NCBI GenBank assembly: GCA_963746775.1
Contig: CAVVCK010000002.1
Coordinates: forward strand, 431,656-495,655
Source of the DNA: an uncultured bacterium
GTDB taxonomy: Bacteria; Patescibacteriota; JABMPQ01; CAVVCK01
Direction of reading: 5' to 3'
Length of the DNA: 64,000 nt
Within the stretch, counting starts at the first letter, position 1, and each line of letters begins with the position of its first letter. The notes beneath the pieces are model-generated. The model was not told where the DNA came from, made no database searches, and saw only the letters and a program-made list of their open reading frames with translations. Shown piece after piece: positions 9,354-35,550 of the stretch. The position numbers and the translations under genes were made by a program.

Positions 9354-9431
9354 ATATTAAATAATTGACCGCAAACTCTTTATTAGTACAGACAAGTTTA
9401 AAACTTGTTTCTTCATTATTAACTTTAAATA

Positions 9432-9882: not shown

Positions 9883-10010
9883 TACTATAATAATAAAATA
9901 GCAAAGAAATTTATGCTATTATTAAAGTGGATTGGCTTATAACAAGCAATTTAGATAATATGTGAAAATTTTAACTACTCATATTATACTTATTTTAAGT
10001 CTTTTGTCAA

Positions 10011-16846: not shown

Positions 16847-16896
16847 TCAATATAATTAATAACATGACTCATACTATCATAAATTTCCATATATGC

Positions 16897-16922
16897 AAAA
16901 AAGAGCATCCTGCTCTTTTTTT
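16897..16922. terminator. Bidirectional terminator AAAAAAGAGCA-tcc-TGCTCTTTTTTT
   Basis: Perfect stem with T/A tracts. It lies downstream of the ROK kinase gene. Confidence 0.6.
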
Positions 16923-16932
16923 AAATTTATAC

Positions 16933-18246: not shown

Positions 18247-19310
18247 TTTATTTTATTAATTATTTGTTTAGCGATTTGTAATTCTTCATCCGTCTCCACC
18301 GCCTCAACCTTAATTCTTCCCAAAAAAGGTAACCCTTCACATATAACTCCCCTCGTTCTTTCATCTCCTGACCCAATAGAGCCCGTAAAAATCAATACAT
18401 CCGATCCGCCCAATTCTGCATAATATGCTCCAATATATTTTTTAACTCGTAGGCAAAACATATCAAAAGCAAGCTTGGCCGTTTTATCTCCTTCTTCTAC
18501 CCTATTTAAAACTTTCAACCAATCTTTCTCGCCACATATCCCATATACTCCACTTTCAAAATTTAACATTTTATCTATTTCATCAACATCCAAATTTTCT
18601 TTTCTTTGTAAATAGGTAATCACCCCCGGATCAATATCTCCTGATCTGCTCATCATCATTAATCCTTCCATAGGTGTAAACCCCATAGAAGTATCTACTG
18701 CCTTGCCACCTAACGATGCCGTTATTGAACATCCCCCACCAAGATGACATGATATAATCTTTAAATCTTCAGCTACTGTTTTGGTCTGTTGATCCTTGAT
18801 CTCTGATCCTTGATTACTCTCAATCATCTTGCTCACCACATAATTATGCGACAACCCATGAAATCCATACCTTCTCACATCAAATCTCCCCGGTATCGCA
18901 TATCTATACACTTTCTCTTCTAAATCTTTATAAAAAGCGGTATCAAAACAGGCATAATTTGAAACATTTGCTAATAAATTTATGGCTGCCTCTATTCCCA
19001 TTAAATTAGCTGGATTATGTAATGGTGCTAATTCATTATATTTTTCTAATTCTTTTAAATTTTCAGCTGTTATTTTAGTAGTTTCTACAAATTCCTCGCC
19101 TCCGTGCACAACACGATGCCCTACTATCTTAATACGCTCCAAATCACCTATCTCTTTCAGGGCAATCTCTAAAGCCTCTTTATGATCCTTAACTTCTTCT
19201 CCAATATTTTGAATATAGCCAAATTTTTCTTCTTTTAAATCTCCACTGTTAAAAAATTTATATTTCAAGGAAGTGGAGCCGGAATTTATAATTAATATTT
19301 TATCTTTCAT
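18243..19310 (-). CDS. ackA: Acetate kinase
   Basis: MKDKILIINSGSTSLKYKFF N-terminus. ASKHA-fold motifs. Confidence 0.85.
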   Translation of the reverse strand: MKDKILIINSGSTSLKYKFFNSGDLKEEKFGYIQNIGEEVKDHKEALEIALKEIGDLERIKIVGHRVVHGGEEFVETTKITAENLKELEKYNELAPLHNPANLMGIEAAINLLANVSNYACFDTAFYKDLEEKVYRYAIPGRFDVRRYGFHGLSHNYVVSKMIESNQGSEIKDQQTKTVAEDLKIISCHLGGGCSITASLGGKAVDTSMGFTPMEGLMMMSRSGDIDPGVITYLQRKENLDVDEIDKMLNFESGVYGICGEKDWLKVLNRVEEGDKTAKLAFDMFCLRVKKYIGAYYAELGGSDVLIFTGSIGSGDERTRGVICEGLPFLGRIKVEAVETDEELQIAKQIINKIK

Positions 19311-19730: not shown

Positions 19731-20312
19731 TTATATTATTAATTTCCCATAATCCCCTAGCCCTACATCAGCTGCATTCCCCTCATCCGTATCCATTTGA
19801 AAAGATAAACTGAATTTAGGGTGAATACGCACAATAACATCTTTAAAAATTAAAGCACGAGAACCAGTTATCTCCACTGATACTCTCTGCTTAGCTTCCA
19901 ATCCAAATTGCTTTGCTTCATCTGGAGATATATGTATATGACGCATAGCACAAATCAATCCTTTATCTAATTTTATTTCTCCTTTTGGACCTTTTACTAA
20001 TATGCCAGGTGTACCAATAATATCACCAGATACTCTGACCGGTGGAATATCGCCTAGTTTTCTGCCATCAGTTATAGAAACTTCTACCTGACTAAATAGA
20101 CGGCAGGGTCCAATCACCCTGACATTTTTAATTTCTCCCTTGGGACCAACTATATCAACTACCTCTTTAGATGCATATTGTCCTGGCTGAGATAATTCTT
20201 TTAGCGGTGATATTTTATATCCTTTGCCAAAAAGCTTCTCAACATTTTCCTGAGTTAAGTGGATATGGCGAGCAGATATTTCGACGGGAACTTTGTTGTA
20301 TGTATTTTTCAT
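19731..20312 (-). CDS. pduL: PduL-type phosphate acyltransferase (phosphotransacetylase function)
   Basis: Two PduL repeats, each with the xxRHIH signature (VEISARHIHLT and ICAMRHIHIS). Adjacent to ackA. Confidence 0.75.
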   Translation of the reverse strand: MKNTYNKVPVEISARHIHLTQENVEKLFGKGYKISPLKELSQPGQYASKEVVDIVGPKGEIKNVRVIGPCRLFSQVEVSITDGRKLGDIPPVRVSGDIIGTPGILVKGPKGEIKLDKGLICAMRHIHISPDEAKQFGLEAKQRVSVEITGSRALIFKDVIVRIHPKFSLSFQMDTDEGNAADVGLGDYGKLII

Positions 20313-20355: not shown

Positions 20356-21912
20356 TTATATATATTCTAAAAGATTTGTCCCCGTCATCTCTTCCGGCTT
20401 ATCTAATCCCATCAAACTCAATACGGTAGTCGTCACATCAGTTAAAATCCCAATAGGTAATAATAAACTTAAATCTTCCAACTTGCCTTGCCCTTTTTTA
20501 TTATTTGAAATAGCTATAAAAGGCACCGGATTTACCGTATGCTCTTTATTTATTTCGCCATTTATCAAATTAATCATAATATCAGCATTACCATGATCGG
20601 CAGTAATTATGACATTGCCATCTTTTTCTAAAATTTTTGGCATAACTTTACTCAAACACTTGTCTATCGTCTCTATACCTTTTATGGCTGCCTGTAAATT
20701 TCCGGTATGACCTACCATATCTGAATTAGCATAATTAATTAGGGTAAAATCATGTTCTCCTTTTTCTATATCTTCTAAAACTTTATCCGTTACTTCTAAA
20801 GCACTCATTTCTGGCTTCTTATCATATGAATCTACTTGTGGTGAAGGAATTAACATTCTATCTTCACCCTTAAATGGATCAATACGACCACAGTTAAAAA
20901 AAACAGTTACATGGGCATATTTTTCTGTTTCAGCAATACGTAATTGTTTTAAATTATTTTTACTCACCACTTCACCTAAAACATTATTTATTTTGTTTTC
21001 TGTAAATACAATTTTTACTGGCAAGCCTTCGTCATATTTAGTCATGCAGACAAAATATAGATTAGGGATTAGTTCCCTCTTAAATCCATCAAACTCCGGA
21101 GAAGTTATGGCTCTGGTTATTTGTTTGGCTCTGTCAGACCGGAAATTAAAAAATATTACCGCATCATTAGCTGATATTTTACCGTCAACTCCTTTTATTA
21201 CTACCGGCTCTAGCTCTTCATCATAAATATTTCTTTTATAAGAATCTTCTATGGCTTCTTTAGTGTTTTTACTCTCTCTGCCTTCTCCTAAAACCATAAC
21301 GCGATAAGCTTTCTCTACTCTCTCCCACCTATTATCACGATCTAAAGCATAAAACCTACCAGAAATTGTAGCAATTTTACCAACTCTTAATTTTTTAATT
21401 TTTTGCTCTAGCTCTAAAATAAAATCTTTGGCAGAATCTTTGGGCGTATCACGGCCATCAGTAAAAGCATGAATATAAACGTTCCTAACTTTTTCCTTTT
21501 TTGCTAATTCTAAAAGTGCATATAAATGTCTGCTGTGGCTATGAACCCCGCCAGGACTTACTAATCCCATTAGGTGTAAAGAAGAGTTATTTTTTTTAAC
21601 ATGCTCAATAGCACCTATTAAAGCTTTATTGGTAAAAAAAGACTTATCTTGAATAGCTTTATCTATTTTAGGCAATTCTTGATACATTACCCTACCTGAT
21701 CCCAAGTTCATATGCCCCACTTCCGAATTGCCAAATTCAAATTTAGGCAAGCCTACTTCTTCTCCGGAAGCTTGTAATAAAGCATGTGGGTAATCGCGAA
21801 TCAGGCTATCAAAAAAAGGCTTTTTGGCTCGAGCTACCGCATTTCCTTCGTGCATGGGAGCTATGCCAAAGCCATCTAGAACTATTAAGATTGTAGGTTT
21901 AATATTTGACAA
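20356..21912 (-). CDS. gpmI: 2,3-bisphosphoglycerate-independent phosphoglycerate mutase
   Basis: ILIVLDGFGIA N-terminus. 518 aa, iPGM family. Confidence 0.9.
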   Translation of the reverse strand: MSNIKPTILIVLDGFGIAPMHEGNAVARAKKPFFDSLIRDYPHALLQASGEEVGLPKFEFGNSEVGHMNLGSGRVMYQELPKIDKAIQDKSFFTNKALIGAIEHVKKNNSSLHLMGLVSPGGVHSHSRHLYALLELAKKEKVRNVYIHAFTDGRDTPKDSAKDFILELEQKIKKLRVGKIATISGRFYALDRDNRWERVEKAYRVMVLGEGRESKNTKEAIEDSYKRNIYDEELEPVVIKGVDGKISANDAVIFFNFRSDRAKQITRAITSPEFDGFKRELIPNLYFVCMTKYDEGLPVKIVFTENKINNVLGEVVSKNNLKQLRIAETEKYAHVTVFFNCGRIDPFKGEDRMLIPSPQVDSYDKKPEMSALEVTDKVLEDIEKGEHDFTLINYANSDMVGHTGNLQAAIKGIETIDKCLSKVMPKILEKDGNVIITADHGNADIMINLINGEINKEHTVNPVPFIAISNNKKGQGKLEDLSLLLPIGILTDVTTTVLSLMGLDKPEEMTGTNLLEYI

Positions 21913-22172: not shown

Positions 22173-23432
22173 TTATTTTAGCAGATTCTCAATTTCCATT
22201 AACCTATTATACTTAGCAATTCTTTCTCCTCTTGATAATGATCCCGTTTTTATAAATCCTGCTCCGGTACCAACTGCAAGGTCAGATATAAAAGTATCAG
22301 TGGTCTCCCCTGATCTGTGAGATATAATTGCTTTAAAACCAGCATCAAAAGCTTTTTTAATACACTGCAGAGTTTCAGTTACAGATCCAATTTGATTTAA
22401 TTTTATTAAAATAGAATTGGCTAATTTTTTCTCAATTCCCATCTCCAACCTCTTCATATTGGTAACAAATAAATCATCACCAACAATTTGAATTTTGTCA
22501 CCCAATCTTTTCGTCACCTTCTGCCAACCTTCGAAATCATCTTCATCCAAAGGATCTTCTATAGATAAAAATGGATATTTTTCAACCCAATCAGCATACA
22601 TTAAAACTAATTGTTCTGCATCTAGAGTTTTATCTTGAGCTTTAAAGTAATAATTTTTAGACTCCTTCTTATAAAATTCAGAAGCGGCAGCATCTATAGC
22701 TAGCATAATATCACTACCTGCCTTGTATCCTGCTTTTTCAATTGCTTCTATTATATATCCAAGAGCTTGATCATTATTTTCTAGGCTAGGAGCATAACCA
22801 CCTTCATCACCTACAGTTGTAGTATAGCCTGCTTGTTTTAAAATTTTACCTAAACTATGAAATACCTCAGCGCCTTGTCTTAGGCGCTCAGCAAAAGACT
22901 CTGCTTGAGGCATAATCATATATTCCTGAATATCTAAACCTGAATCAGCATGTGCTCCTCCATTAACAATATTCATTTGAGGATAAGGAAGACTATATTC
23001 AGCACTACCACCTATTTTTTCAAAATTCTCTTTTACATATTCATAGGGCTCTAGTCCTTTTGATTTGGCAACTGCATTAAATATAGCTAGCGATACTCCC
23101 AGGATTGCATTGGCGCCTAGCTCGGATTTGTTTTCTGTCCCATCTAAATCTATCATTATTTTATCTACCTGTGCATGATCTGAAACATCTTGGTTTATCA
23201 ATGCTTTTAATATTTTTGTATTTACATTTTCACAAGCTTTAAGTGTTCCCTTGCCACCATATCTATTGGAATCACCATCACGAAGTTCTAGGGCTTCATG
23301 AGTACCCGTAGATGCGCCTGATGGTACTAAACCTAAACCTTCCGTTCCGTCTTCTAGTATAGCTTTTACTTCTACAGTTGGATTGCCGCGTGAATCTAAG
23401 ATTTCACGAGCTTTTAATGTTTTTAATTTCAT
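22173..23432 (-). CDS. eno: Enolase
   Basis: [15 protein letters not shown]-terminal signature. 419 aa. Confidence 0.92.
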
Positions 23433-23517: not shown

Positions 23518-24699
23518 TTATTTATCATTCAAGGCTGCAATTCCTGGTAGTTCCTTCCCTTCCAAAAACTCCAACATCGCTCCGCCACCAGTCGATACAA
23601 AGGTTAATTTTTCCTCTAAACCTAAGCTTCTAACCAAATCAAGTGTCTCCCCCCCACCAATAATACTTTTAGCATTGCTGTTTGCTACAGCCTGGGCTAT
23701 TTCATAAGAACCTTTGGCAAATTCTGGAACTTCAAAAAGCCCCATGGGACCATTCCAAATTACCATATTTGAATAATTTATAATTTCTTTATATTGAGCA
23801 ATGGTCTTTGGTCCAATATCTAGAATCATTTCAAAGTCTTTTAAATCTGTCCCATTTGAAATCCTAGATTTAGCGTTTTCATTTGGACTGCTAGCTACAA
23901 TATAATCTTGAGGCATATATAATTTATTCTCCCCTTCTTCTAGATATGGTAATAATTTTTTTGCCTCAAATGCCATTTCTCTCTCTACTTTAGATTTGCC
24001 AACATTCTGTCCTTTTTCTATAAGAATATTATTAACCAAAGCTCCACCTAATAAAACTTTCTCTGCTAGCTCTAATAATTTTTCAATAACTTTAATTTTA
24101 GTAGAAATTTTAGCTCCACCTATTAAACAAACCAAAGGATGTTCCGGATTTCTTAAAATATTAGATAAATTATTAATTTCTTCTTCCATTAATAATCCGG
24201 CTACAGCTGGTATAAATTTTGTTACTCCTTCAGTTGAAGCATGAGCCCGATGAGCTGTCCCAAAGGCATCATTAACATAAATATCAGCTAAGCTTGCTAG
24301 TTTCTTGGCAAATTCTGGATTATTTTCTTCTTCCTCAGCATGAAATCTTAAATTTTCTAGTAAAACAATGTCTCCTTTCTGCATACCGGCTACCTCAGTT
24401 TCTACTTCTTCTCCGATACAATCACTTAACATTAGAACTGATTCATTTAGTAAGGTTGATAAATATCTGGCTACTGGTTCTAATCTTAATTCTTCTACTA
24501 TTTTTCCTTTTGGTTTTCCTAAATGAGACATTAAAATAATTCTGGCTCCTTGTTCTATTAAATATTTAATAGTAGGTAATGCTTTTACAATTCTAGTATC
24601 ATCACTTACTTTTCCCTCCGAGGTTAGAGGCACATTAAAATCCACACGCATTAATACTTTTTTGCCCCTAATGTCGATGTCTTTTATTGTTTTTTTCAT
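23518..24699 (-). CDS. pgk: Phosphoglycerate kinase
   Basis: RVDFNVP motif and GGGA...NGPMG motifs. 393 aa. Confidence 0.92.
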   Translation of the reverse strand: MKKTIKDIDIRGKKVLMRVDFNVPLTSEGKVSDDTRIVKALPTIKYLIEQGARIILMSHLGKPKGKIVEELRLEPVARYLSTLLNESVLMLSDCIGEEVETEVAGMQKGDIVLLENLRFHAEEEENNPEFAKKLASLADIYVNDAFGTAHRAHASTEGVTKFIPAVAGLLMEEEINNLSNILRNPEHPLVCLIGGAKISTKIKVIEKLLELAEKVLLGGALVNNILIEKGQNVGKSKVEREMAFEAKKLLPYLEEGENKLYMPQDYIVASSPNENAKSRISNGTDLKDFEMILDIGPKTIAQYKEIINYSNMVIWNGPMGLFEVPEFAKGSYEIAQAVANSNAKSIIGGGETLDLVRSLGLEEKLTFVSTGGGAMLEFLEGKELPGIAALNDK

Positions 24700-24764: not shown

Positions 24765-25019
24765 CTACATTCCTTCAATCTCTTTTATTTTAACATAAGG
24801 ACCGCTAATTTGGCTAATTTCTACTTTAGAACCGCTCAAAACTGTCCCTTTACTTAATAATTTAATATTAAATTTCAAATTAGAAGGTAGAATAGTTTCT
24901 CCATGCTCAGAAATTTTTCCCAAGCCAATTTTAATATTAGTAATTTTTTTTAAGCCATTTTTTCTGGCATACTCTTTTATATCCCGAACTATTTTGTCTG
25001 CTGCATGTAGGTCGTGCAT
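24765..25019 (-). CDS. HypA-like hydrogenase nickel-insertion protein, N-terminal domain only (no zinc finger)
   Basis: MHDLHAADKIVRDIKEYARKNG resembles the HypA MHE(L/M)S(L) N-terminus. There are no cysteines, so the Zn-ribbon is absent. Confidence 0.4.
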   Translation of the reverse strand: MHDLHAADKIVRDIKEYARKNGLKKITNIKIGLGKISEHGETILPSNLKFNIKLLSKGTVLSGSKVEISQISGPYVKIKEIEGM

Positions 25020-25060
25020 AAAATCAATATAACATTAAAACAATATAATTAAATAACAAT

Positions 25061-25429
25061 TTATTTTTTATTATCTATACTTTTTCCTAAAGTTTTCAGT
25101 TCTGTCCAAAGCATAACACCTATTTCATCGGCTAATTTTAAAGCAATAATGTAATCTTCTTTTTTTATATAATTCTCATTTAAAGAGAAATAGAGAAGGT
25201 ACTTAGACTCTTTTAATGATCCATAAGATATTTCAAGAAAATTCAACTGGACAGCTCTTTTCCTTCTAGCAAAACCTTCAATATAATTAAGTATCACCGA
25301 GAGTAATGATCTTCTTATCTATGAAACAACTCCATATAATTCTGCCTTTGGATATCCCCTGGTTAATTTATACATTGAATGAACATATTCATCCATTTTT
25401 AATTTTAACTCATCTTGAAACTTAGGCAT
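25061..25429 (-). CDS. Four-helix-bundle (TIGR02436/Avd-like) protein gene interrupted by an in-frame TAG at 25319-25321
   Basis: Continuous frame MPKFQDELKLKMDEYVHSMYKLTRGYPKAELYGVVS-TAG-IRRSLLSVILNYIEGFARRK...DEIGVMLWTELK. The stop sits where the family has a conserved Gln (..LTSQLRRA..). Confidence 0.55.
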
Positions 25430-25466
25430 TTGTTATTTTGTTCTTGTGTTATCTTGTTATTTTGGC

Positions 25467-26735
25467 TTAATGTACCGAACACGTAATACAAGGATCATAA
25501 GCTCTGATCATCATTTTTATTTTCCTTGTTCTTTCTTCTTCTGTCAAATTTAGAACTCTTGATAAATATTGTTCTAAATCTCTTTCCATATTAGATATTA
25601 GTTGCGCTGTTGGTGTAATAATATTTAGTTTAGTAATCTTTCCCTTGCTACTTATTCCATAGGCATGATAAAGCGTTCCCCGAGGCGCTTCTATCGCTCC
25701 TACTCCGTAGCCTTCTTTCACTTTATAATCTGTAGCTATATTTTTCAAATCTGATTTTAAAACTTTTTCTAATAATTTTATACTTTCTTCAATACTATCA
25801 ATAATTTCAATCATTTGCGCTAAAATATTGTAAAAAGAATTACAAGAAGGCAATATAATACCCGATTTTTTTAATAATTTTTGCGCTTCTCTGTTTAATT
25901 TTTCATGATTAATATTAAGCCGGGCCAGTGCCCCTACCATAATTTCTTTATCGTTTTTCTTAACCCTCTTAACTGCTTCATAGGGCAATTGAATTTCTTC
26001 TATATTATTTTCAAATTTATCTGGTGAAATATTTAATCCTTTCGTTGATACTACGCTACCATCATATATTGAATATTCCTTTTTATTGCTCAAAGCTACA
26101 TATTCCGTCTCCCGACTAAAGCCTGGATATTTTAATTTGCTAAAAAATTCTCCTAGAATTGCAGCTTCTTTTAATATCTGACCACTTTGTTTTAGTAATT
26201 TCTCTACTTTAGATCGATTTGGTGCTACTCTAAAACCTCCTATTTTGCCAGACACAGGATGTATTGATCTTCCACCAAAAACATGAATCAGCTCATTACC
26301 ATATTCTCTAATGGACAAAGCTAGCTTAGTATATTCTGGAAATTGTTTAATTAAAGTAGAAGCTTCTGAAATATCAAAGAAATCTGATAGAGATAAAAAA
26401 TAAATATGCAGTGTATGGCTTTGAATAAATTGGCCCAGCATTAAAATTTTACGCATTATAACTGCATCTTCGGGAATTTTAACGTCTAAAGCTGATTCAA
26501 CGGCTTTTAGCGCAGTTAAGTAGTGAACAACCGGACATACTCCGCAAATACGAGCTGAAATATTAGCTGCTTCTTCAAAATTCCTGCCTACCATTATTCT
26601 CTCAAAAAGCCTAATGCCCATTATTACTTCAAAGCGAGCTTTTTGAACATTACCATTAACAATATCACCAATAAATCCAGCATGGCCTTCAATTTTGTCT
26701 ATTTGATTAATTTTAATTGTTCTTTTATTACTCAT
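25467..26735 (-). CDS. [NiFe] hydrogenase large (alpha) subunit, group 3b-like
   Basis: N-terminal RICGVCPVVH (L1) and C-terminal DPCITCSVH (L2). The protein ends at the His, with no C-terminal extension. Confidence 0.85.
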   Translation of the reverse strand: MSNKRTIKINQIDKIEGHAGFIGDIVNGNVQKARFEVIMGIRLFERIMVGRNFEEAANISARICGVCPVVHYLTALKAVESALDVKIPEDAVIMRKILMLGQFIQSHTLHIYFLSLSDFFDISEASTLIKQFPEYTKLALSIREYGNELIHVFGGRSIHPVSGKIGGFRVAPNRSKVEKLLKQSGQILKEAAILGEFFSKLKYPGFSRETEYVALSNKKEYSIYDGSVVSTKGLNISPDKFENNIEEIQLPYEAVKRVKKNDKEIMVGALARLNINHEKLNREAQKLLKKSGIILPSCNSFYNILAQMIEIIDSIEESIKLLEKVLKSDLKNIATDYKVKEGYGVGAIEAPRGTLYHAYGISSKGKITKLNIITPTAQLISNMERDLEQYLSRVLNLTEEERTRKIKMMIRAYDPCITCSVH

Positions 26736-27478
26736 TGTTTTTTTAATTTTTCAATTTTTACTCCATAAACTTCCATCATTTCATAAATCTCTTTCTCACT
26801 CACCCTATCTTTCAATGCTTTAATTATATTTTCCCAGTTAGCCTCTTTCAAAAATCCTCTACAACCATAGCACTCTAACCCACCAGATAAACAAGCAGCA
26901 CCACATCCTCCAGCTGTAGCCGGTCCCAAGCATGGCTTTCCTTCTTGTAATAAGCATTTATAACCATTTATTTGGCACTCATAACAAACTGGCCTTTGGA
27001 TATTCTTAGGATTACGGCCAGCTAGCAGCATATATACTATTCTCAAGAAATCTTTATTATCAATAGGACAGCCCAGCACTTCATAATCAACTTTAACGAC
27101 TTCTTTAACTGATTCTACTTTATAATCTTCCACTTCCTTTGGTCTTTCGTAAACAAATTTAGGCTTCACTAATTTAGGATGATAATTTTTCATTTTCTGC
27201 ACTCCCCCATGAGTAGCGCAAGTACCCAGCGCTATTAAAATCTTACTTCGTCCGCGAATACTTTTTAAAAATTTAAATTGTTCATCTAATAATGGAGTAC
27301 CTTCTACAAAGACAATATCATAGTTGCCTTCCTCGGGTAGTTCTTCAATCAAATGAAATTCTGCCAAATCAATTCTTTTAGTTAATTCTAAAAATTTCTC
27401 ACCTAAATCTAGGATAGCAAATTCACATCCCTCACAGCATGTTAAGCTTACTATCCCTACTTTTGGTTTCTTAGTCAT
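26732..27478 (-). CDS. [NiFe] hydrogenase small (delta) subunit, group 3-type
   Basis: GIVSLTCCEGCEFAI proximal-cluster motif. ATGA overlap with the large subunit gene. Confidence 0.8.
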   Translation of the reverse strand: MTKKPKVGIVSLTCCEGCEFAILDLGEKFLELTKRIDLAEFHLIEELPEEGNYDIVFVEGTPLLDEQFKFLKSIRGRSKILIALGTCATHGGVQKMKNYHPKLVKPKFVYERPKEVEDYKVESVKEVVKVDYEVLGCPIDNKDFLRIVYMLLAGRNPKNIQRPVCYECQINGYKCLLQEGKPCLGPATAGGCGAACLSGGLECYGCRGFLKEANWENIIKALKDRVSEKEIYEMMEVYGVKIEKLKKQ

Positions 27479-27510
27479 AAAAAGATAAAAATTTTAAAAC
27501 ATTAAAACAA

Positions 27511-27870
27511 TTATTTTGAATCTTTGATATTTTTTATTTCAGTCCAAAGCAGAGCACCTATTTCATCTGCTAATTCCATTCCCTTTTTATATTGATTTTC
27601 GTTAATAAATCCTTCCATTAAAGAAAAATGTAAAAGATATTTAGTTTCTTTCAATAATCCATACGACATCATTGAAAAATTTCTCTGATTACCCTTATTA
27701 AATCTTGCAAAACCTTCTATATAATTAAGTATTACTGACAATGAAACTCGTTTAAGTTAAGAAACTATACCGAATAATTCTTCTTTTGGAAAATTGTATG
27801 ATATCTTATAGCAATAATGAGCATATTGATCCATTTTCTTTTTCAATATTTCTCTATAATTCTCTTTCAT
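27511..27870 (-). CDS. Four-helix-bundle (TIGR02436/Avd-like) protein gene interrupted by an in-frame TAA at 27757-27759
   Basis: Continuous frame MKENYREILKKKMDQYAHYCYKISYNFPKEELFGIVS-TAA-LKRVSLSVILNYIEGFARFNK...DEIGALLWTEIK. Paralog of 25061..25429, with the stop at the identical aligned position. Confidence 0.55.
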
Positions 27871-27905
27871 TAATTTTGTTCTCGTGCTCTAGTGTTTTAA
27901 TGTTT

Positions 27906-28652
27906 TTATAATCCTATATTCGCCAACCCTACACTATACCCATTCCACTTATTCAAATTCATCACTTGCAAATCACTCAACTTATCACAAGCCCAAAACC
28001 AGTGCATGGAGACAAAGTCTCCTATTTTTATATTTTCAATAAACTTCTTATTATTAAATTTAAAATATATATCTTTATTTTCTAAATTTCCAAAGATAAA
28101 CTGATTATCTTTAAATATTAAAGGCCTATATTTTATTTCTAATTTTCCAGATTTTATTTTTAAAACACGTGTAGGCAATATTAAACATTCATTAATAGTC
28201 TCCAAAGTATGCTCTACTGGATAATAACCTGTTCGCTTGGGAATATTCAGCACATGAAAGCTATGATGAGGCTTCGCTCCCATCGGAATCTTACCAATTA
28301 CCTTCTCTGCCATTTTCATTTTAAACTTTTTCTTCAAGTTCTGCTTATCAATCAAATAACTATAGAAATTATTCATAGAAACATTATTCAGAAGATCATT
28401 CCCTATCCAATAAGCTTCACTAACTTTAGAATTAAGTGGATCTGAAATATGACTAGCATCAGCAATTAATTTTAAATAAGGATACATAGTCTGAAATTCA
28501 GCTAAAATCTCTTCTAACCCTTTATCTTGCTGATTCTGAGATACATATTCAAAAAGATTGCTATTCTTATCACCTCCGCAATACTGCAGCTTATTAGGAC
28601 TAAAGGCATAACGAGCTGCAATCAACATTCCATTATACGATAGGTTTTCCAT
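27906..28652 (-). CDS. Hypothetical protein
   Basis: 248-aa ORF, no family recognised. Overlaps the upstream DMT transporter gene by 20 nt. Confidence 0.4.
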   Translation of the reverse strand: MENLSYNGMLIAARYAFSPNKLQYCGGDKNSNLFEYVSQNQQDKGLEEILAEFQTMYPYLKLIADASHISDPLNSKVSEAYWIGNDLLNNVSMNNFYSYLIDKQNLKKKFKMKMAEKVIGKIPMGAKPHHSFHVLNIPKRTGYYPVEHTLETINECLILPTRVLKIKSGKLEIKYRPLIFKDNQFIFGNLENKDIYFKFNNKKFIENIKIGDFVSMHWFWACDKLSDLQVMNLNKWNGYSVGLANIGL

Positions 28653-29553
28653 GTAATTGTTTTTGATCTTCTAGTTTCTCTCTAAATTTCCAAAACAAAA
28701 CTACTCCCACTAAAATTATTAACGCTCCCAATATTTTATCTAACGACAATTTATGAGTTACAAAAGTAGCGTTTAAAAATGTTGTAATTGGTGAAGCTAA
28801 TACTAAAACCGAAGCTGTCACCGTCACTGGCAATTTCTTCAAAGCACTATACCAAGTAATTACATACCCGCCTAAAAATAGTGAGACCAATAATATCCAA
28901 GCCATTTGATTAGAGCTTAAATCTAGCAAACCTCCCATATTCCCTGTAAATAATAAAAATAAAACTAAAATAATTGATCCAAAAAACATTCTGCCCCAAG
29001 CTAGGACCATCGAATCAATATTCTTTAGAGCAATTTTGGCAATAATATTTTCCGCAGCCCATAAAAGCGTGGCTATCAATATTAAAATTTCAGCGTACCC
29101 GAATTTCAGTCCAGAAAAGCCTTCAAAAATTACATTGCCTGTTAATAAAATTCCCAAAGCTATAAATTGCAATTTACTTAGCTTCTCTTTTAAAATCGGA
29201 AAGGCTAGGATAGCCACCCAAATAAATAAAGTTTTATGTATAAATGAGGCAGATACTGGAGAGGTAAGGCTTAAGCCTTGGAAAAACAATAAAAAAGGAA
29301 CGCTGCCACCTATTAAGCCTATTAAGCTTAATTTCAGCCAGTCTTTTTTACTTAATAATTTTAATTTCTTAAAAATAAAAGGAGTTAGAACTATTAATGT
29401 CAAAAATAGAGCAACTACTACATTTTTCAAGGTCGTATATTGAAAAGCATTTTTACCTAAAGCCTGCATGCCAAATTTATTAAAAAAATTGGCTAAGCCA
29501 GAGATGACGGCCGTTGCTAGGACTAAATAGAATCCTTTTTGAATATTGATCAT
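28633..29553 (-). CDS. DMT-superfamily (EamA-like) transporter
   Basis: 306 aa with ~10 TM helices in two EamA-like halves. Confidence 0.7.
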   Translation of the reverse strand: MINIQKGFYLVLATAVISGLANFFNKFGMQALGKNAFQYTTLKNVVVALFLTLIVLTPFIFKKLKLLSKKDWLKLSLIGLIGGSVPFLLFFQGLSLTSPVSASFIHKTLFIWVAILAFPILKEKLSKLQFIALGILLTGNVIFEGFSGLKFGYAEILILIATLLWAAENIIAKIALKNIDSMVLAWGRMFFGSIILVLFLLFTGNMGGLLDLSSNQMAWILLVSLFLGGYVITWYSALKKLPVTVTASVLVLASPITTFLNATFVTHKLSLDKILGALIILVGVVLFWKFREKLEDQKQLHGKPIV

Positions 29554-29609
29554 TTTTTTGTTAATACAAATTACAAATTAAACAATTATCTACACTATTC
29601 TGTTTTTGA

Positions 29610-29670
29610 CCTGCTTATCTGTAATATTTAAAAAGCGGACTTAGCGGATTTTAGCAGATACGCGGAAAAA
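29610..29670. repeat. Family-2 palindromic element, degenerate copy
   Basis: CTGCTTATCTGTAAT...AGCGGACTTAGCGGATTTTAGCAGATACGCGGAAAAATAT shares the GCGGATT..GCGGAAAA core with 13851-13930. Confidence 0.45.
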
Positions 29671-29729
29671 TATATTATTTAATATTTTTATTTTACTACT
29701 TATAGAGCCTTGGTGCAATGTTGAAAAGT

Positions 29730-29936
29730 TTATTTATTACTAAAAATATCCATAATTTCCTCAGCCTCTTTCCTGAAAACCTTTTTTATAGCCAAATTAG
29801 CATTATGTAAAATGTAATCTCCCACTTTAAGATTTTTTAACATACTAATATTAACTTCTAATTTATTCTTTTTATCTTGAATTAGAGCTATTTCTCCTTT
29901 AATTTTTAATATTTTAGCAGGATAGGTTAGACACAT
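29730..29936 (-). CDS. hypC: HypC/HupF-family hydrogenase maturation chaperone
   Basis: MCLTYPAKILKIKGE N-terminus (essential Cys2) and GDYILHNANLAI C-terminal motif. 68 aa. Confidence 0.7.
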   Translation of the reverse strand: MCLTYPAKILKIKGEIALIQDKKNKLEVNISMLKNLKVGDYILHNANLAIKKVFRKEAEEIMDIFSNK

Positions 29937-29937
29937 T

Positions 29938-32232
29938 TTATTCTTCTTTTAGTTTATATAAGTAATATTCTCCTTCATGGGCTACTAGATCCATGTGTTT
30001 GTTTTTAAATTTTATCACCCTTTTGTAATTATCTAAAGTAAAATTAGCATATTCTTGTGAGCCATTTTCTTGTTTAGCCCACAATATTCTTTCCGAAATA
30101 TTTTCCGTATACCCTCTCCAAATAAAATATCTTATGTTAAAATTTTTTAATACTCGGATAACATGTTCCTCAGTATTATTTTTTAATAAATAACTAATAT
30201 ATAATAAATAATGATCTTGTATATAACGGTTATTAGAGTTATCTATATAATAACCCCTTGCTTGATCTAATCCCCAAATCATTTCTTTATTATCTAAATT
30301 ATTATTTAAATATTCTGACATTAAATACAATTTATCTCTCGATATACTCGGATCTGGTGAATATAGAGACATATAATTTATTCTTTTGTTAAATTGTAAA
30401 TTTCCAATTGTAATTATCCAGATCGATAAGAATGTATATAAAAATAATTTTAGGTATTTATTTCTTGTAAAAAATATTTGACTCAATAAAACAAAAAATA
30501 AAACATACAATGAAATAGCATACCAGATAACAACATGTCCTATATAAACCCAACCGAAATATAGAATAATAGTAGCAAACAATAGTAAAATAAATTCCCT
30601 TTTCAATTTCCTATAAAATATATTCTTTATATAATAAAATATTATAACTGGAGCAAAAAGAATAAATGTAAAACCTATGTTTAACGCATCAGAAATATAT
30701 TTTTTATTTCCTATATAAGTAATATCAAAAGGTATATTTAAAAAATAACTCAAATCCTTTTTTTGTTTATCATCCCATATCAAGTAAGCTTCATTTCTCA
30801 TCTCATTAACTATATATTTTTGTGAATCTCGACCTAAAGTATCATAAAAAGATTGTTTTGAAGCTAACTTCTCACTTAAAATTGGGTCAATCGGGTTACC
30901 GCTAAATTTAATATTTCTGACAAACCATGGCAACATAAAAATAAATATTATTAATCCCCAAATAAAAAAATATTTTACTTTTATTTTATTTCTAATTATT
31001 TGTACTAGAAAAAATATTACCAACGGAACAATATACCATGTTAGAAAAAAATATTTTAACCCGGCCGCGATACCACAGAAAACACTAAAAATAATTAAGT
31101 CTTTTATTTTTCTTTTTTTTAGATAGTTTATAAAAGAACAATAACTGATCAATGTATAAAAAACAAAAATCATTTCTATTTTATGGTCTTCTAAATTTTG
31201 AAAAAATATTACAGGCAATGTTAAATAGGCAATAATAGCATAAACGCCACCCTTTAATTTATTTTTTCTAAAGAAATAATAAATGCATAAAACAATTAAT
31301 AAAGTAAAAATAAAAATAAGCGCTAAAGTTATTTGGAAGTTAAAAAGTAAATATCCTAAAGTAAATAACATTTCTCCATTTTGAGGAAAACCATAATAAA
31401 TCCAATAAGGAAAATTTACTATCCCATGATTCTCAACGAAAATCTTAGGATAAGTTAAATAGGAAATGAAAGCATCAAAACCAGAAGGAAATTGCTGAAA
31501 TATACCCGAAATATCAATTCCTAAAATCACAGGAATAATTAAAAAAATACCTTTTCCAAATAAAGTTAATTTTTTGAGTTCATAAAAATTATTTTTATCT
31601 TTAAAATAAGTCCACAATTCTATAATTTCTTTATAAGTAACAAAGGTTACAATAATCATTAAAACATAAGCAATAATTCTATAATATAAACCAAACATTC
31701 CTAAAAAATACACAATAAACATTAAAGCACCAAATCCTAGAGCACAAGAAAATAAAAACTTTTCTAAAAAAAAGCTAGTTTTATATTTAAATATTTTTAA
31801 TGTTTTACAACCTAAAGAAAAAGATATTAAAAATATCCAGGAAACTAAAATAATAGTAATTATATCATTACCAATAACGCCTAAATTATAAGAAGATCTA
31901 GCATAAATCCAGATAATCCATAAAAATGTAAAAAAATATAAAGACAAAGGCAAATAATATACAGGTATTTTTAAATCATTTATCTTATTTTTAAGTCCTT
32001 TTCTGCTTATTGACATAAAGTCTTTAATTTTTTTGCTTGGCCAAAAAATAATTAAAACTATTTTAAACAAAGCTAAAATATTAGCTATAAGTAAAGCAAA
32101 AGTAACAAACAAAGCTACTGATGATATAAATGCTTCTCCATAGTTAGGAAAACTATAAAAATAATAAACTATTACAACAATTCCCCACATCAGGAATAAT
32201 CCTGCAAAAATTTTTGAATAATATTTTTTCAT
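29938..32232 (-). CDS. Large polytopic membrane protein (more than 15 TM), possible GT-C/YfhO-like glycosyltransferase
   Basis: 764 aa, extremely hydrophobic, with a C-terminal soluble domain. Function not assignable from sequence alone. Confidence 0.4.
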   Translation of the reverse strand: MKKYYSKIFAGLFLMWGIVVIVYYFYSFPNYGEAFISSVALFVTFALLIANILALFKIVLIIFWPSKKIKDFMSISRKGLKNKINDLKIPVYYLPLSLYFFTFLWIIWIYARSSYNLGVIGNDIITIILVSWIFLISFSLGCKTLKIFKYKTSFFLEKFLFSCALGFGALMFIVYFLGMFGLYYRIIAYVLMIIVTFVTYKEIIELWTYFKDKNNFYELKKLTLFGKGIFLIIPVILGIDISGIFQQFPSGFDAFISYLTYPKIFVENHGIVNFPYWIYYGFPQNGEMLFTLGYLLFNFQITLALIFIFTLLIVLCIYYFFRKNKLKGGVYAIIAYLTLPVIFFQNLEDHKIEMIFVFYTLISYCSFINYLKKRKIKDLIIFSVFCGIAAGLKYFFLTWYIVPLVIFFLVQIIRNKIKVKYFFIWGLIIFIFMLPWFVRNIKFSGNPIDPILSEKLASKQSFYDTLGRDSQKYIVNEMRNEAYLIWDDKQKKDLSYFLNIPFDITYIGNKKYISDALNIGFTFILFAPVIIFYYIKNIFYRKLKREFILLLFATIILYFGWVYIGHVVIWYAISLYVLFFVLLSQIFFTRNKYLKLFLYTFLSIWIITIGNLQFNKRINYMSLYSPDPSISRDKLYLMSEYLNNNLDNKEMIWGLDQARGYYIDNSNNRYIQDHYLLYISYLLKNNTEEHVIRVLKNFNIRYFIWRGYTENISERILWAKQENGSQEYANFTLDNYKRVIKFKNKHMDLVAHEGEYYLYKLKEE

Positions 32233-32299
32233 AAAACTATAAATAAATAACCCTACTCCTTAAAGCAGGGTCATTTATATTTTAATTATTTTAGTTATA

Positions 32300-33124
32300 T
32301 TAAATCACCCCCTCAATCCCTCTCAACTGCTCCCAACTAAATACCGGCCCATCCTTACAGACATAATAAGGACCAACAGCACAATGTTCACATACCCCAA
32401 TACCACATTCCATACGACGCTCCAGGGATAAATAAATATTTTCATCTTGAAAACCTTTTTCTTTTAATTTATCTATGACAAATTTACACATAATGGGCGG
32501 CCCGCAAACTAAGGCTACACCAGAAGCATCTGTTTCTTGCTGATCAAATAAAGCTGTGATTAAACCTATATTACATTTTACTCCTGAAATATTTTCTTCC
32601 CTACCTTTATCCAAAGTAATACTTATTTCTATATTCTTGCACCAATCATCAATTTCATCTTTAAATATTAATTCCTCCTTATCCCTGGCTCCATAAAATA
32701 CCTGCATATTGCTAGATTTGGCGCTACAATAGGACTTAATTAGGGATCTAAAGGGAATAATGCCAATTCCACCAGCAACAATTAAAACTTTTTTATTATT
32801 AATTTTATCTATTGGCCAACCATTGCCATAAGGTCCTCTAATGCCAACTGTATCACCTACTTTCATAGTGTGCATTCTCTTAGTCAATTCTCCCACTTTA
32901 CGGATACAAATCTCTATATATTTTTTATCATAAATAGATCCACAATAAGCAAAAGGAGCTTCATTAAAACCAGGAATGGATAACTCTAAAATTTGCCCCG
33001 GACTAAACTGAAAATTTTTTCTATATTTTCTATTTTCAAATCTTAATTTATAGAGATTGATAGTATCGTTTTCCTTCTTTATACTTATTATTTTTGCTTT
33101 TTCTGTTTGGTATTGGTTTTGCAT
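32300..33124 (-). CDS. Hydrogenase gamma subunit-like FAD/NAD(P)-binding oxidoreductase with a C-terminal [2Fe-2S] motif
   Basis: FNR-like fold (VLIVAGGIGIIPFRS). C-terminal CGIGVCEHCAV cluster motif. Typical partner of group 3b hydrogenases. Confidence 0.7.
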   Translation of the reverse strand: MQNQYQTEKAKIISIKKENDTINLYKLRFENRKYRKNFQFSPGQILELSIPGFNEAPFAYCGSIYDKKYIEICIRKVGELTKRMHTMKVGDTVGIRGPYGNGWPIDKINNKKVLIVAGGIGIIPFRSLIKSYCSAKSSNMQVFYGARDKEELIFKDEIDDWCKNIEISITLDKGREENISGVKCNIGLITALFDQQETDASGVALVCGPPIMCKFVIDKLKEKGFQDENIYLSLERRMECGIGVCEHCAVGPYYVCKDGPVFSWEQLRGIEGVI

Positions 33125-33281
33125 TTTTTAAACTAATTATGAAATTAATGTCCTTGTAGATATTACTTCTAGCTAGATTAATAGCCTCAAATCTACTTCT
33201 TATGTATATTTTTTGATTTTTTTCTAAACGTTTTGAAATGTAATACTTTATATTGAGTTGTTATTTTTTCACTAAGTACCT

Positions 33282-33310
33282 TTGACTATATTAACATAAT
33301 ATGATATAGA
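33282..33310 (+). promoter_or_regulatory. Sigma70-like promoter candidate (TTGACT, 17 bp, TATAGA) upstream of the small plus-strand ORF
   Basis: TTGACT 33282-33287 and TATAGA 33305-33310 with a 17-bp spacer. SD AAGAGGAGG follows before the ATG at 33342. Confidence 0.35.
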
Positions 33311-33341
33311 TAAACGTCAGACAAAAGAGGAGGACGACGCA

Positions 33342-33623
33342 ATGGCTGCGTTCGAAACTATAAAAGTACCTAGTATCGACCAAATTACAATGGCCTTCGC
33401 AACACGAAAGGAAGAAAAACGCTACGTTTTTTTTCAGGTCCGTAATATTAGAGATATAACAAAAAAAGTAATAGAATTAAGAGTAATAGTTGAAGCCATT
33501 AGCCGCGATAAAACACGGCTGAATCTGGTTATAAAAGGTACTGCTATTATTTATGGCAGAATTCGTAAGGTACTTTGTAGCTTTAACACGCTCTCTCGGA
33601 CAGGTAGCATTGTTACTACATAA
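33342..33623 (+). CDS. Hypothetical small basic protein (93 aa), opposite strand, inside the hydrogenase cluster
   Basis: Strong SD (AAGAGGAGG 7 nt upstream), a promoter-like site, locally elevated GC. No recognised family. Confidence 0.45.
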   Translation: MAAFETIKVPSIDQITMAFATRKEEKRYVFFQVRNIRDITKKVIELRVIVEAISRDKTRLNLVIKGTAIIYGRIRKVLCSFNTLSRTGSIVTT

Positions 33624-33710
33624 CCCCCTCGTTCTTTCCCTTTCATTTTATATTATTTCCTTCTATATATCCTCAATATAGGACAAAGTTGATTTTAATG
33701 ACCAAAGGAA

Positions 33711-34688
33711 TTATTTATCCTCTAAAATCTCCTTCAAAACCTCGCTTATTTCAATCCCCACCGGACAAACTCTAGAACACCTCCCACAACCCACACAACC
33801 GGAAATACCAAATTTATCAGGAGTTCTGACAAATTTGTGGGTATACCAATAATATATTCTTTCCTCGGTAGAATTTAAAAATTTATGATTACCGGCCACT
33901 TCTGAAAATTCATGATAAAAACAAGCATCCCAACATCGAACTCTCTCACCTTCGTCTTCTTCTAAACTCGGCCTATCATCTATTCTAAAACAATAGCAAG
34001 TAGGACAAGCTAGGGTACATTTACCACATTCTATACATCTCTTACCCAGCTCTTCCCATACTTTCTTATTATATCCTTTTTTCATTTTCTCTCTAATTTT
34101 CAACATTATAGGATCTTGGCCTTCCTCTTTTATTGGTCCTGCAAACTGAATATGATTATAATTCCTATAACCAAATTCTTCTAGTATTCTCTGCCCTTTT
34201 TCTGATCCGGTGAATACTTCATACAAATCTCCATGCTTTTCTAAAAATATATCAAATCGAACATGCTCCAAAATATGTTCTTCAAAATTTTCTAAGAATA
34301 TTTTAAAAGATTTACTATCTTTATTATTTGAACTACCTTGACCAATAACTATAATATTTCTCCTTCTCGTTTGATAATTTAAATCTTTTTCAAAAACATG
34401 GTCATACAAATTTAGAGCTTTTAAATCAAAAATGGTCATACCCAAAGCTATGGTTGGTTTCAGATTAAGTTTACCCTCTTCCAAATTACTACCCTTATAT
34501 TTAAATAAAGTTTCACACGGGGGTAGAAATAATTTTTTAAAATTTTTTCTGGCAACGGCGCCATTTAAAACAATATCTTGATAATCTTTGACATAGCCTA
34601 AGTCAAGGCCATCAGGTGCAAGTGGGGCGTATATTTTATGGGTTTCTAATAAATATTTTATTAGCTCTTTTAATTTTGTTTTTGTCAT
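33711..34688 (-). CDS. Hydrogenase beta subunit-like 4Fe-4S ferredoxin-domain protein
   Basis: CIECGKCTLACPTCYCF and CVGCGRCSRVCPVGI cluster motifs. Sulfhydrogenase beta-like. Confidence 0.7.
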   Translation of the reverse strand: MTKTKLKELIKYLLETHKIYAPLAPDGLDLGYVKDYQDIVLNGAVARKNFKKLFLPPCETLFKYKGSNLEEGKLNLKPTIALGMTIFDLKALNLYDHVFEKDLNYQTRRRNIIVIGQGSSNNKDSKSFKIFLENFEEHILEHVRFDIFLEKHGDLYEVFTGSEKGQRILEEFGYRNYNHIQFAGPIKEEGQDPIMLKIREKMKKGYNKKVWEELGKRCIECGKCTLACPTCYCFRIDDRPSLEEDEGERVRCWDACFYHEFSEVAGNHKFLNSTEERIYYWYTHKFVRTPDKFGISGCVGCGRCSRVCPVGIEISEVLKEILEDK

Positions 34689-34764: not shown

Positions 34765-35550
34765 TTATTTTGTATTTGCTTTTTGAGATTTAATTTCATC
34801 AGTTCTCTCAATCACCTTTACAAAATCCTCTGCCTTTAAACTTACTCCTCCCCCCAACACACCATCAGCATCTTCTTTTGCCATGAATTCTTCAATATTA
34901 TCTGGCGTAACGCTGCCTCCATACAAAATTCTAACTTTATTTGATATCCCTGCACTATATCTTTCAGCAATAATTTTTCTAATTAGTTGTAATACCTTTT
35001 CTGCATCTTCTCCTGTAGCAGCCTTGCCAGTACCTATAGCCCAAACAGGTTCATAGGCTATAATTGTTTTTTCGATTTGTTCTTTATTCAAACCGCTAAT
35101 AGCAGCCTCTAATTGATTCTGAATTATTTTATTAGTTTTATTCTCTTTTCTTTCTTCTTCTTTTTCCCCCACGCATATCACAGGAATTAAATTATTTTTA
35201 AAAGCTGATTTAGCCTTTTTGTTTACCTCCTCATTTTTCTCGCCAAAAATATGTCGCCTTTCAGAATGACCTAAAATTACATAATAACAGCCTATTTCTT
35301 TTATTTGTGCTCCGGATACTGCTCCAGTAAAAGCACCTTTATCTTCAAAATACATATCCTGTGCTCCTAGCTTTATATAGTCAGGCTTTATTTTGGATAC
35401 TTCAAATAAATGAGGATAAGAAGGGCAGACCGCTATTTCAACATTGCCCTTAAAATCAAAAAGTGAATCCCTTAAATCTGTAATTAATTTTAAACTTTCA
35501 GATAAATTTAGTTGCATTTTCCAGTTACCCATAATAAGTGGTTTACGCAT
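34765..35550 (-). CDS. tpiA: Triosephosphate isomerase
   Basis: MRKPLIMGNWKMQLN N-terminus. AYEPVWAIGTGKAAT active-site loop. Confidence 0.9.
   Translation of the reverse strand: MRKPLIMGNWKMQLNLSESLKLITDLRDSLFDFKGNVEIAVCPSYPHLFEVSKIKPDYIKLGAQDMYFEDKGAFTGAVSGAQIKEIGCYYVILGHSERRHIFGEKNEEVNKKAKSAFKNNLIPVICVGEKEEERKENKTNKIIQNQLEAAISGLNKEQIEKTIIAYEPVWAIGTGKAATGEDAEKVLQLIRKIIAERYSAGISNKVRILYGGSVTPDNIEEFMAKEDADGVLGGGVSLKAEDFVKVIERTDEIKSQKANTK

Follow-up and report, generated by a model that had tools for sequence, protein, structure and literature searches.

Gene order and accessory genes of a predicted group 3b [NiFe] hydrogenase locus within a glycolytic gene string of a Patescibacterial genome

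Why would the genes for a four-subunit hydrogenase be found as two separate pairs within a string of glycolytic genes, and how would the enzyme mature with so few accessory genes beside it? These questions are raised by a 64-kb stretch of DNA from an uncultured bacterium of the Patescibacteriota (contig CAVVCK010000002.1), which we refer to as the window. The window has ~30% GC, a composition of the Patescibacteria/candidate phyla radiation (CPR) type, and its minus strand holds nearly all of the genes. An earlier note on this DNA had described a group 3b-like [NiFe] hydrogenase in which the beta and gamma subunit genes (hydB and hydG) were separated from the delta and alpha subunit genes (hydD and hydA) by an insertion of ~5 kb, perhaps within a rearranged or horizontally inserted cassette. 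The coordinates and gene calls of that note were correct, and every open reading frame (ORF) that it named is present. The insertion itself did not survive comparison with related genomes. The "split" operon appears, from the order of genes in these relatives, to be the normal arrangement of the clade.

The four subunit genes are on the minus strand: hydB at 33711-34688 (beta, the Fe-S electron-transfer subunit of the diaphorase half), hydG at 32300-33124 (gamma, binding FAD and NAD(P)H, with 2Fe-2S), hydD at 26732-27478 (delta, the small subunit) and hydA at 25467-26735 (alpha, the large, catalytic subunit). The hydD stop and the hydA start overlap by 4 nt. In a search of the Protein Data Bank (PDB), the best solved relative of each product was the corresponding subunit of Pyrococcus furiosus sulfhydrogenase I (SHI): alpha (6e-65), delta (9e15_A, 9e-47), gamma (9nez_C, 7e-54) and beta, for which SHI beta was the single match (9nez_B, 9.5e-25). 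The Cys motifs of delta and beta align with those of their SHI counterparts. Alpha also matched Thermococcus kodakarensis HyhL (PDB 5yxy, 7.7e-63) and scored lower against enzymes of other groups (3c Mvh, 7.7e-52; 3d, 3.3e-35; 3a and group 1, 1e-25 or weaker over the full length), which bears out the earlier assignment to group 3b. The family matches were Pfam Fer4_22 (3.8e-32) and NCBIfam sulfhyd_HydB (1.2e-35) and ShyB (6.3e-33) for HydB, a sulfhydrogenase beta/AsrA-like protein; Pfam FAD_binding_6, NAD_binding_1 and DHODB_Fe-S_bind for HydG; Pfam Oxidored_q6 (4.5e-22) and NCBIfam ShyD (6.6e-49) for HydD; and NiFeSe_Hases together with NCBIfam ShyA (4.8e-81) and HydA (9.8e-72) for HydA. The Fe-S cysteine patterns of the structural subunits are intact. 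HydA has both ligand motifs of the Ni-Fe site, RICGVCPVVH near the N-terminus and DPCITCSVH at the C-terminus, and both are kept in 117-120 of its best 120 homologs.

The four-subunit 3b set is thus complete in genes, with alpha and delta as the hydrogenase module and beta and gamma as the diaphorase module. Because all four products match SHI subunits and hydBGDA is contiguous in non-Patescibacterial relatives (Scalindua, Actinomycetota, Bathyarchaeia, Anaerolineae and others), beta and gamma are best read as the diaphorase half of the same enzyme. The same evidence excludes the possibility that they form a stand-alone sulfide dehydrogenase. The score reached, 273 bits, is far below the NCBIfam equivalog cut-off of 700 bits, which fits a separate clade. 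We conclude that hydBGDA are predicted to encode a cytosolic, NAD(P)-linked [NiFe] hydrogenase of group 3b, in the form ("hyd1") found in Patescibacteria.

The hyd1 clade of group 3b enzymes in CPR bacteria has been published (Jaffe et al. 2020, PMC7304191; Valentin-Alvarado et al. 2024, PMC10811913), and the enzyme in the window is a member of it. There, hyd1 clusters are described as containing the large and small subunits, gamma, beta and a hypC-like neighbor, with beta and gamma "not immediately upstream" of the small subunit in some CPR genomes, and the phylogeny suggests that CPR bacteria acquired 3b hydrogenases by ancient transfer (PMC7304191); an electron-bifurcating role was proposed from an AlphaFold model of a Berkelbacterial enzyme (PMC10811913). 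In the passages of these papers that we searched we found no account of a missing C-terminal extension or protease, a zinc-less HypA, DUF6390, an EamA permease or synteny with glycolytic genes. The predicted enzyme shares with SHI and Hyh the four subunits, the Ni-Fe Cys motifs, the Fe-S Cys patterns and the FAD/NAD(P) module. It differs from them in that the archaeal genes are contiguous, whereas here accessory genes are interleaved between gamma and delta, and in the end of its large subunit, which is taken up below.

To compare gene order, we used 80 loci around HydA relatives in species-representative genomes, and in addition L081, whose HydA is 88% identical to that of the window; all were annotated with the window's proteins. 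The view of each neighborhood was 10 kb on each side of the HydA match (20 kb). We counted 47 loci as Patescibacterial by their record titles or gene order, some of the titles being generic or contradictory, and counts of upstream content refer to the 30 Patescibacterial loci with at least 6 kb of sequence upstream. The order hydB-hydG-hypC-EamA-DUF6390-hydD-hydA-hypA was found in L006, L015, L028, L029, L033, L035, L037, L075 and L081, usually followed by pgk-eno-gpmI-gpmI. The recurrence of the same gene order in dozens of related loci argues that the pattern is not due to chance. Between secY and the ROK kinase gene, L081 and the window are collinear at 74-82% nucleotide identity, and L081 is without exactly three segments of the window: 32322-29940, which holds a PMT_2 gene of ~2.4 kb, and 27918-27482 and 25467-25022, two four-helix-bundle cassettes of ~0.44 kb each. 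Of the supposed insertion, then, ~1.9 kb is conserved cluster content and ~3.3 kb recent, unrelated cargo. The comparison with CPR genomes that the earlier note had proposed thus gave a divided answer, in that the PMT_2 gene and the cassettes are recent additions whereas hypC-EamA-DUF6390 is conserved.

The three window-specific pieces are later insertions unrelated to the hydrogenase. The PMT_2 gene (29938-32232, minus strand) encodes a 764-aa polytopic membrane protein of the GT-C glycosyltransferase type (Pfam PMT_2, 5.7e-07) and lies between hydG and hypC, which abut in L081. It had no homolog in any of the 80 related loci and is a window-specific insertion that lies outside the hydrogenase system. 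It is preceded by a terminator-like hairpin on the minus strand (32243-32278; 16 pairs and then a T-run) directly 3' of the hydG stop. This hairpin is weak evidence for termination, because such sites are no more numerous in the window than in shuffled controls.

The earlier note had reported one four-helix-bundle gene; that gene is real, and a second had been overlooked. Cassette B (27482-27918; ORF 27511-27741) and cassette A (25022-25467; ORF 25061-25297), both on the minus strand, flank hydD-hydA as direct repeats of ~440 nt with 81% column identity in a two-sequence alignment, and each has at its ends short inverted repeats that are predicted to pair when folded. Both copies match TIGR02436, the 23S rRNA intervening-sequence protein family. 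Neither has an intact ORF of ~110-125 aa; in each, the same conserved Gln codon, codon 37, has been replaced by an in-frame stop (TAG in cassette A, TAA in cassette B). The reading frame is open before and after this stop, and the ratio of nonsynonymous to synonymous substitution rates (dN/dS) for the pair is 0.33 on both sides. Two C-to-T hits on one codon, or one ancestral hit, are plausible given 3-4 Gln codons per gene. Intact copies occupy the same inter-gene slots in L036 and L038. Recoding or read-through of the stop codon now seems unlikely, and decay the more likely course, because related copies are broken in other ways, by a TAG at another codon in L082 and by a frameshift in L083; there is also no suppressor tRNA in the window, the entire 64 kb of which has no tRNA genes. 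At the position of cassette B, the intergenic region between DUF6390 and hydD in L081 is a long, near-perfect palindrome with arms of ~30 nt (L081:9162-9257).

The spacer between hydB and hydG (33125-33710, 586 nt) is a variable spot holding unrelated opposite-strand genes. In the window its sole ORF is on the plus strand (33342-33623), encodes 93 aa without a Pfam or PHROG match, and has a strong Shine-Dalgarno sequence (GAGGAGGA) ahead of it. In L081 the spacer contains an unrelated gene for a 239-aa protein, also on the opposite strand (5597-6316, minus), which looks like a zinc protease of the metzincin/archaemetzincin type, judging by eye from an HEVGH motif and pairs of Cys residues. An RNA element was considered for the spacer in the window and was set aside, as there was no Rfam match there.

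We found that the large subunit of this clade has no C-terminal extension. HydA ends ...DPCITCSVH followed by the stop codon, with 0 residues past the final His, and the same was found in 46 of 46 Patescibacterial loci and in all of the best 120 database homologs. In contrast, 30 of 33 other relatives have an extension of 5-24 residues, mostly 7-9, and three end at the His. The archaeal reference precursors (P. furiosus and T. kodakarensis) have 428 aa, four beyond the mature 424. A gene for a maturation protease of 155-169 aa was present in 16 of 31 loci of other relatives, mostly immediately after hydA, and in 0 of 39 Patescibacterial loci. The short extension and dedicated endopeptidase that characterize 3b enzymes are therefore both missing here, and because HydA ends at the last metal-site histidine, the endopeptidase step would not be needed, as had been proposed for this one protein and as now appears to hold clade-wide. 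Large subunits that naturally have no extension, ending at or near the final metal-site residue, and that mature without an endopeptidase are known from HoxC of the regulatory hydrogenase and from the CooH and Ech types, which belong to groups 2b and 4. Here, by comparison, the loss is inside a 3b clade, the nearest non-Patescibacterial relatives of which keep extension and protease.

The gene after hydA and cassette A encodes a short HypA of 84 aa (24765-25019, minus strand; Pfam HypA, 1.8e-08, profile positions 1-68 of 112). It had been called a Cys-free, truncated HypA-like ORF. It is indeed HypA-like and contains no Cys, as do its homologs in Patescibacterial loci and the database matches examined; it is not a remnant. 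Of 39 Patescibacterial loci, 31 have a short HypA within 1.5 kb downstream of hydA, and none of 31 other loci does; the lengths as called are 79-109 aa, some of these ORFs having been called from a point ahead of the true start. The N-terminal Met-His-Asp never varies, and the protein has the alpha/beta nickel domain of HypA with its Met-His-Glu-type site. Solved HypA proteins from T. kodakarensis (3a43) and Helicobacter pylori (6g81) have 117-139 aa and a zinc domain with two CxxC pairs, which is absent here and in the Patescibacterial homologs examined. The short HypA is a complete nickel domain, including the last strand that normally follows the zinc domain, with the zinc domain cleanly excised. 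Its setting also differs from that of canonical HypA, in that hypB was not recognized in the window.

Three further accessory genes lie between hydG and hydD on the minus strand. The first, hypC (29730-29936), encodes a canonical HypC of 68 aa (Pfam HupF_HypC, 1.4e-16; TIGR00074) that begins MCLTYPAK, with the Cys directly after the initiator Met, and hypC was present in 28 of the 30 Patescibacterial loci. The second (28633-29553) encodes a permease of the EamA/drug-metabolite transporter superfamily (Pfam EamA, 1.1e-32), with two EamA repeats in a polytopic membrane protein of about ten helices. The third (27906-28652), listed earlier as a hypothetical protein, is a real ORF and belongs to a defined family that had been overlooked, DUF6390 (Pfam, 1.5e-50). 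EamA in the matching position and DUF6390 were each found in 10 of the 30 loci. In the window, L081, L023 and L028 the EamA gene runs 20 nt into the DUF6390 gene, and the presence of this overlap in four lineages argues for coupled translation and a shared function.

DUF6390 joins a new all-alpha domain to an OB domain of the HypC type. When profiles were compared, HypC matched over its entire length to residues 156-242 (probability 95.9%, E 5.6e-9), which have the OB fold and C-terminal helix, and C156 aligns with the essential Cys2 of HypC. Approximately residues 1-155 form an all-helical N-terminal domain, and these first 155 residues had no relative among the structure-search matches listed. 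In the family alignment C25, H129, H130, H133, C156, H217, W218 and C222 are invariant. There are 384 detectable members; every one with a named source is Patescibacterial, and most have no source name. We found no mention of DUF6390 in the literature that we searched. The earlier statement that hypC and the HypA-like ORF were the only other maturation-like genes therefore needs an addition, since DUF6390, with its HypC-fold domain, is also maturation-like; it holds in that no hypB, hypD, hypE or hypF was recognized by eye in the window.

We classed DUF6390 as HypC-fold-containing, and not as HypC, because the aligned Cys is internal, at residue 156 behind the conserved 155-aa domain, whereas that of HypC is N-terminal. 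It shares with the HypC paralogs HybG and HupF/HoxL the HypC fold and conserved Cys/His positions and, like HupF/HoxL, is encoded next to a canonical hypC among hydrogenase genes (PMC12134894). The extension of HupF/HoxL is C-terminal, whereas that of DUF6390 is N-terminal, ~155 aa long, all-helical and without a solved structural relative; its Cys cannot be a free N-terminus, it has additional invariant Cys and His residues, and its gene overlaps that of the permease. A divergent HypD was also considered and rejected: the hhalign probability was 0.1%, and the alignment contains no GPGCPVC or Fe-S Cys motifs. Other Patescibacterial lineages have, at the same position, different proteins composed of a helical N-terminal domain and a HypC-like domain, several of them with His in place of the Cys.

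We looked for the rest of the Hyp machinery. None of hypB, hypD, hypE and hypF was recognized by eye among ORFs of at least 100 aa in the 64-kb window, in which the cluster ORFs were the ones scanned with profiles. Among the 30 Patescibacterial loci, seven have hypD and three have a fusion of HypC to a radical S-adenosylmethionine (SAM) domain, and DUF6390 and hypD never occur together (0 of 30). No hypD, hypE or hypF was found within 10 kb on either side of any DUF6390 locus, whereas non-Patescibacterial relatives usually keep hypCDEF within 10 kb. DUF6390, hypC-hypD-hypE and the HypC-HydE fusion occupy the same slot in different lineages.

The loci of the Moranbacteria type (L002-L005, L007, L010, L011, L014, L017, L018, L024, L025 and L027) have hydD-hydA without hydB and hydG, and many of them have hypC-hypD-hypE and an N-terminally truncated HypF with the Kae1-like domains only. 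In these loci a gene that resembles desulfoferrodoxin/superoxide reductase by eye, from its N-terminal sequence, lies between hydA and hypA, and gap follows downstream. Upstream in L014 there are genes that look NuoF-like and 2Fe-2S/NuoG-like by eye, which suggests a different diaphorase partner.

HypC fused to a HydE-like radical-SAM domain was found in group 3b clusters of Buchananbacteria, Ca. Scalindua and a Nitrospirae metagenome-assembled genome (MAG). The fusion is present at L031:7941-9203, L036:6822-8072, L044:11772-12307 and L045:4267-5742, and paired with HydG at L034:6236-7501 and 7507-8874 and at L046:15580-16875 and 16872-18248. The contigs of L044 and L045 end at or just past the fusion, which leaves no view of a neighboring HydG there. 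The fused domain scored 248-274 bits against HydE TIGR03956 (cut-off 254.6), and the adjoining HydG of L034 and L046 scored 575 and 523 bits against TIGR03955 (cut-off 312). In Buchananbacteria the fusion is in the slot where the window has hypC-EamA-DUF6390; in Ca. Scalindua and the Nitrospirae MAG it is a few kb downstream of hydA. In the literature that we searched there was nothing relevant on HypC-radical-SAM fusions or on hypD, hypE and hypF together in CPR bacteria.

The location of the block between tpiA and pgk, described earlier, is correct, and the linkage to glycolytic genes is conserved. On the minus strand, tpiA (triose-phosphate isomerase, 34765-35550) forms the upstream boundary, 76 nt from hydB, and pgk (23518-24699) follows 65 nt after hypA; then come eno (22173-23432), gpmI (20356-21912), pduL (19731-20312) and ackA (18243-19310). 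These were read from their translations, and their L081 orthologs bear Pfam labels (TIM in the case of tpiA). The genes from pgk to ackA, on the same strand and directly downstream of the block, represent lower glycolysis and the acetate branch. Among loci with at least 6 kb on both sides, a glycolytic gene (tpiA, fba, gap, pgk, eno or gpmI) was present in 18 of 21 Patescibacterial loci, and two or more in 13 of the 21, compared with 0 of 8 loci from other phyla. tpiA lies upstream of the cluster in L010, L011, L014 and L017, and the order pgk-eno-gpmI-pduL-ackA was also found in L012, L020, L028, L031-L033, L036-L038 and L075.

The explanation that we think rather probable is that the locus encodes a hyd1-type 3b enzyme that serves the re-oxidation of glycolytic NAD(P)H, with a streamlined and interleaved accessory kit, HypD, HypE and HypF encoded elsewhere, and some later insertions. 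The enzyme would re-oxidize NAD(P)H from the glyceraldehyde-3-phosphate dehydrogenase (GAPDH) step in a fermenter without a respiratory chain, releasing H2, or H2S given polysulfide, so that glycolysis to acetate could continue. The composition of the kit is evident from the loci, and the roles of its members we infer from their families. HypC and DUF6390 would handle the iron unit and hold the apo-large subunit, with DUF6390 acting as a chaperone or scaffold that keeps that subunit open and hands over the metal; the EamA permease may supply that metal or another ligand; and the short HypA would insert nickel. The large subunit, going by its sequence, would mature without a proteolytic checkpoint. 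The Fe(CN)2CO unit would most likely come from HypD, HypE and HypF encoded elsewhere in the genome.

Several observations weigh against this explanation. The GAPDH gene is not in the window. We know of no link of EamA permeases to nickel or iron. The internal position of C156 in DUF6390 may mean a different mode of action from that of HypC. The transcript could be interrupted by the 586-nt spacer with its opposite-strand ORF, by the hairpin that follows hydG and by the inserted genes. No hypD, hypE or hypF was seen in the window or in DUF6390 loci, which is awkward for standard HypDEF elsewhere, in genomes of ~0.5-1 Mb. Finally, sequence does not reveal which way the reaction runs, toward H2 evolution, H2 uptake or sulfur reduction, and bifurcation has been proposed for CPR 3b enzymes (PMC10811913).

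In a different account of maturation, the lineage has no hypD, hypE or hypF and assembles or acquires the iron-cyanide-carbonyl unit with HypC, the permease and DUF6390 as a Cys/His iron scaffold replacing HypD. That no hypB, hypD, hypE or hypF was recognized in the window agrees with it, as do the mutual exclusion of DUF6390 and hypD in the 30 loci, the sharing of one slot by alternative modules and the usual retention of hypCDEF near the cluster outside the Patescibacteria. DUF6390 moreover has, besides the HypC-type Cys, an invariant Cys in a "CGG/CGP" context that recalls what we take to be the CGGH motif of Escherichia coli HypD. However, our view covered 20-kb neighborhoods and, for this genome, 64 kb, whereas hyp genes are commonly scattered; the comparison with the HypD profile was null; and no enzyme of the cluster could make cyanide or CO. 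We are doubtful of this account. With similar reserve we mention a broader form of it, which would require that Patescibacterial 3b maturation dispense with HypD, HypE, HypF, HypB and the protease, with DUF6390 as an Fe (or Ni) scaffold fed by EamA and the slot between the diaphorase and hydrogenase genes as an interchangeable "maturation cartridge", filled by hypC-hypD-hypE in loci of the Moranbacteria type, by hypC-EamA-DUF6390 in the window and by the HypC-HydE fusion in Buchananbacteria.

The function could also differ from a simple NAD(P)H-driven H2 valve, the enzyme being mainly a sulfhydrogenase/polysulfide reductase or an electron-bifurcating hydrogenase. Beta and gamma score nearly equally against the anaerobic sulfite reductase subunits AsrA/AsrB and the sulfhydrogenase subunits, and P. 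furiosus SHI reduces sulfur in vitro; for bifurcation there is the suggestion from the Berkelbacterial AlphaFold model (PMC10811913). Yet the cluster has no AsrC or other sulfur-handling gene, its conserved neighbors are glycolytic and acetate-forming and not sulfur genes, and no ferredoxin-linked partner is encoded in the block, so that we consider a mainly sulfur-reducing or bifurcating enzyme improbable. Least probable is a once-contiguous hydBGDA recently broken by a ~5-kb insertion or rearrangement, or a cassette placed horizontally between tpiA and pgk. Such events would agree with the contiguity of hydBGDA outside the Patescibacteria, with the ~3.3 kb of intervening DNA (the PMT_2 gene and two cassettes) that is truly recent, and with published trees that point to an ancient transfer of 3b hydrogenases into CPR (PMC7304191). 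The core of the proposal is, however, largely refuted. The hypC-EamA-DUF6390 slot and the tpiA/pgk flanks are common to divergent Patescibacteria with HydA only 43-55% identical, and the GC content of the block is like that of the DNA around it, with the PMT_2 gene (0.23) as the exception. A recent insertion or a horizontal origin of the whole intervening block is ruled out by synteny with the 47 Patescibacterial loci and L081.

The hydrogenase and its occurrence in CPR bacteria are known. The accessory kit, with its extension-less HydA, zinc-less HypA, DUF6390 with a permease, and swappable modules in sister lineages, appears to be undescribed in the literature that we searched. Assembly of [NiFe] hydrogenases is taught as needing six Hyp proteins and a protease. 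Here a bacterial radiation with tiny genomes retains what is apparently a functional 3b enzyme, to judge from the metal ligands conserved in the best 120 homologs. At this locus three things have been shed, namely the HydA extension, the maturation protease and the HypA zinc domain, and two have been gained: an uncharacterized protein of the HypC fold whose Cys/His site is conserved, and the permease that accompanies it. These proteins are small candidates for probing the purpose of the HypA zinc domain and of the checkpoint made up of extension and protease, and a simpler maturation route, if one exists, would be useful for heterologous production of hydrogenases. The clusters with HypC-HydE and HydG, if functional, would link the two worlds of hydrogenase maturation and would mean that [FeFe]-type radical-SAM chemistry can supply the CO/CN-iron unit of a [NiFe] enzyme. 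The locus also bears on how the fermentative redox balance of an episymbiont is wired to glycolysis.

There were a few other features of note in the window, all on the minus strand. The sole Rfam match is a full-length bacterial class A RNase P RNA (9425-9885, 166 bits). Reading of translations indicated a CorA-type divalent-cation channel with a YGMN motif (10011-10931), ~14 kb from the hydrogenase genes; CorA proteins can transport Ni and Co besides Mg. A 203-aa ORF that adjoins recJ (14489-15100) resembles, again by its translation, an IS200/REP-associated tyrosine (Y1) transposase. Two adjacent genes (57464-60526) encode secreted proteins of 341 and 666 aa with a similar N-terminal region and Gly/Thr/Ser-rich repeats, which may be surface or adhesin proteins of an episymbiont.

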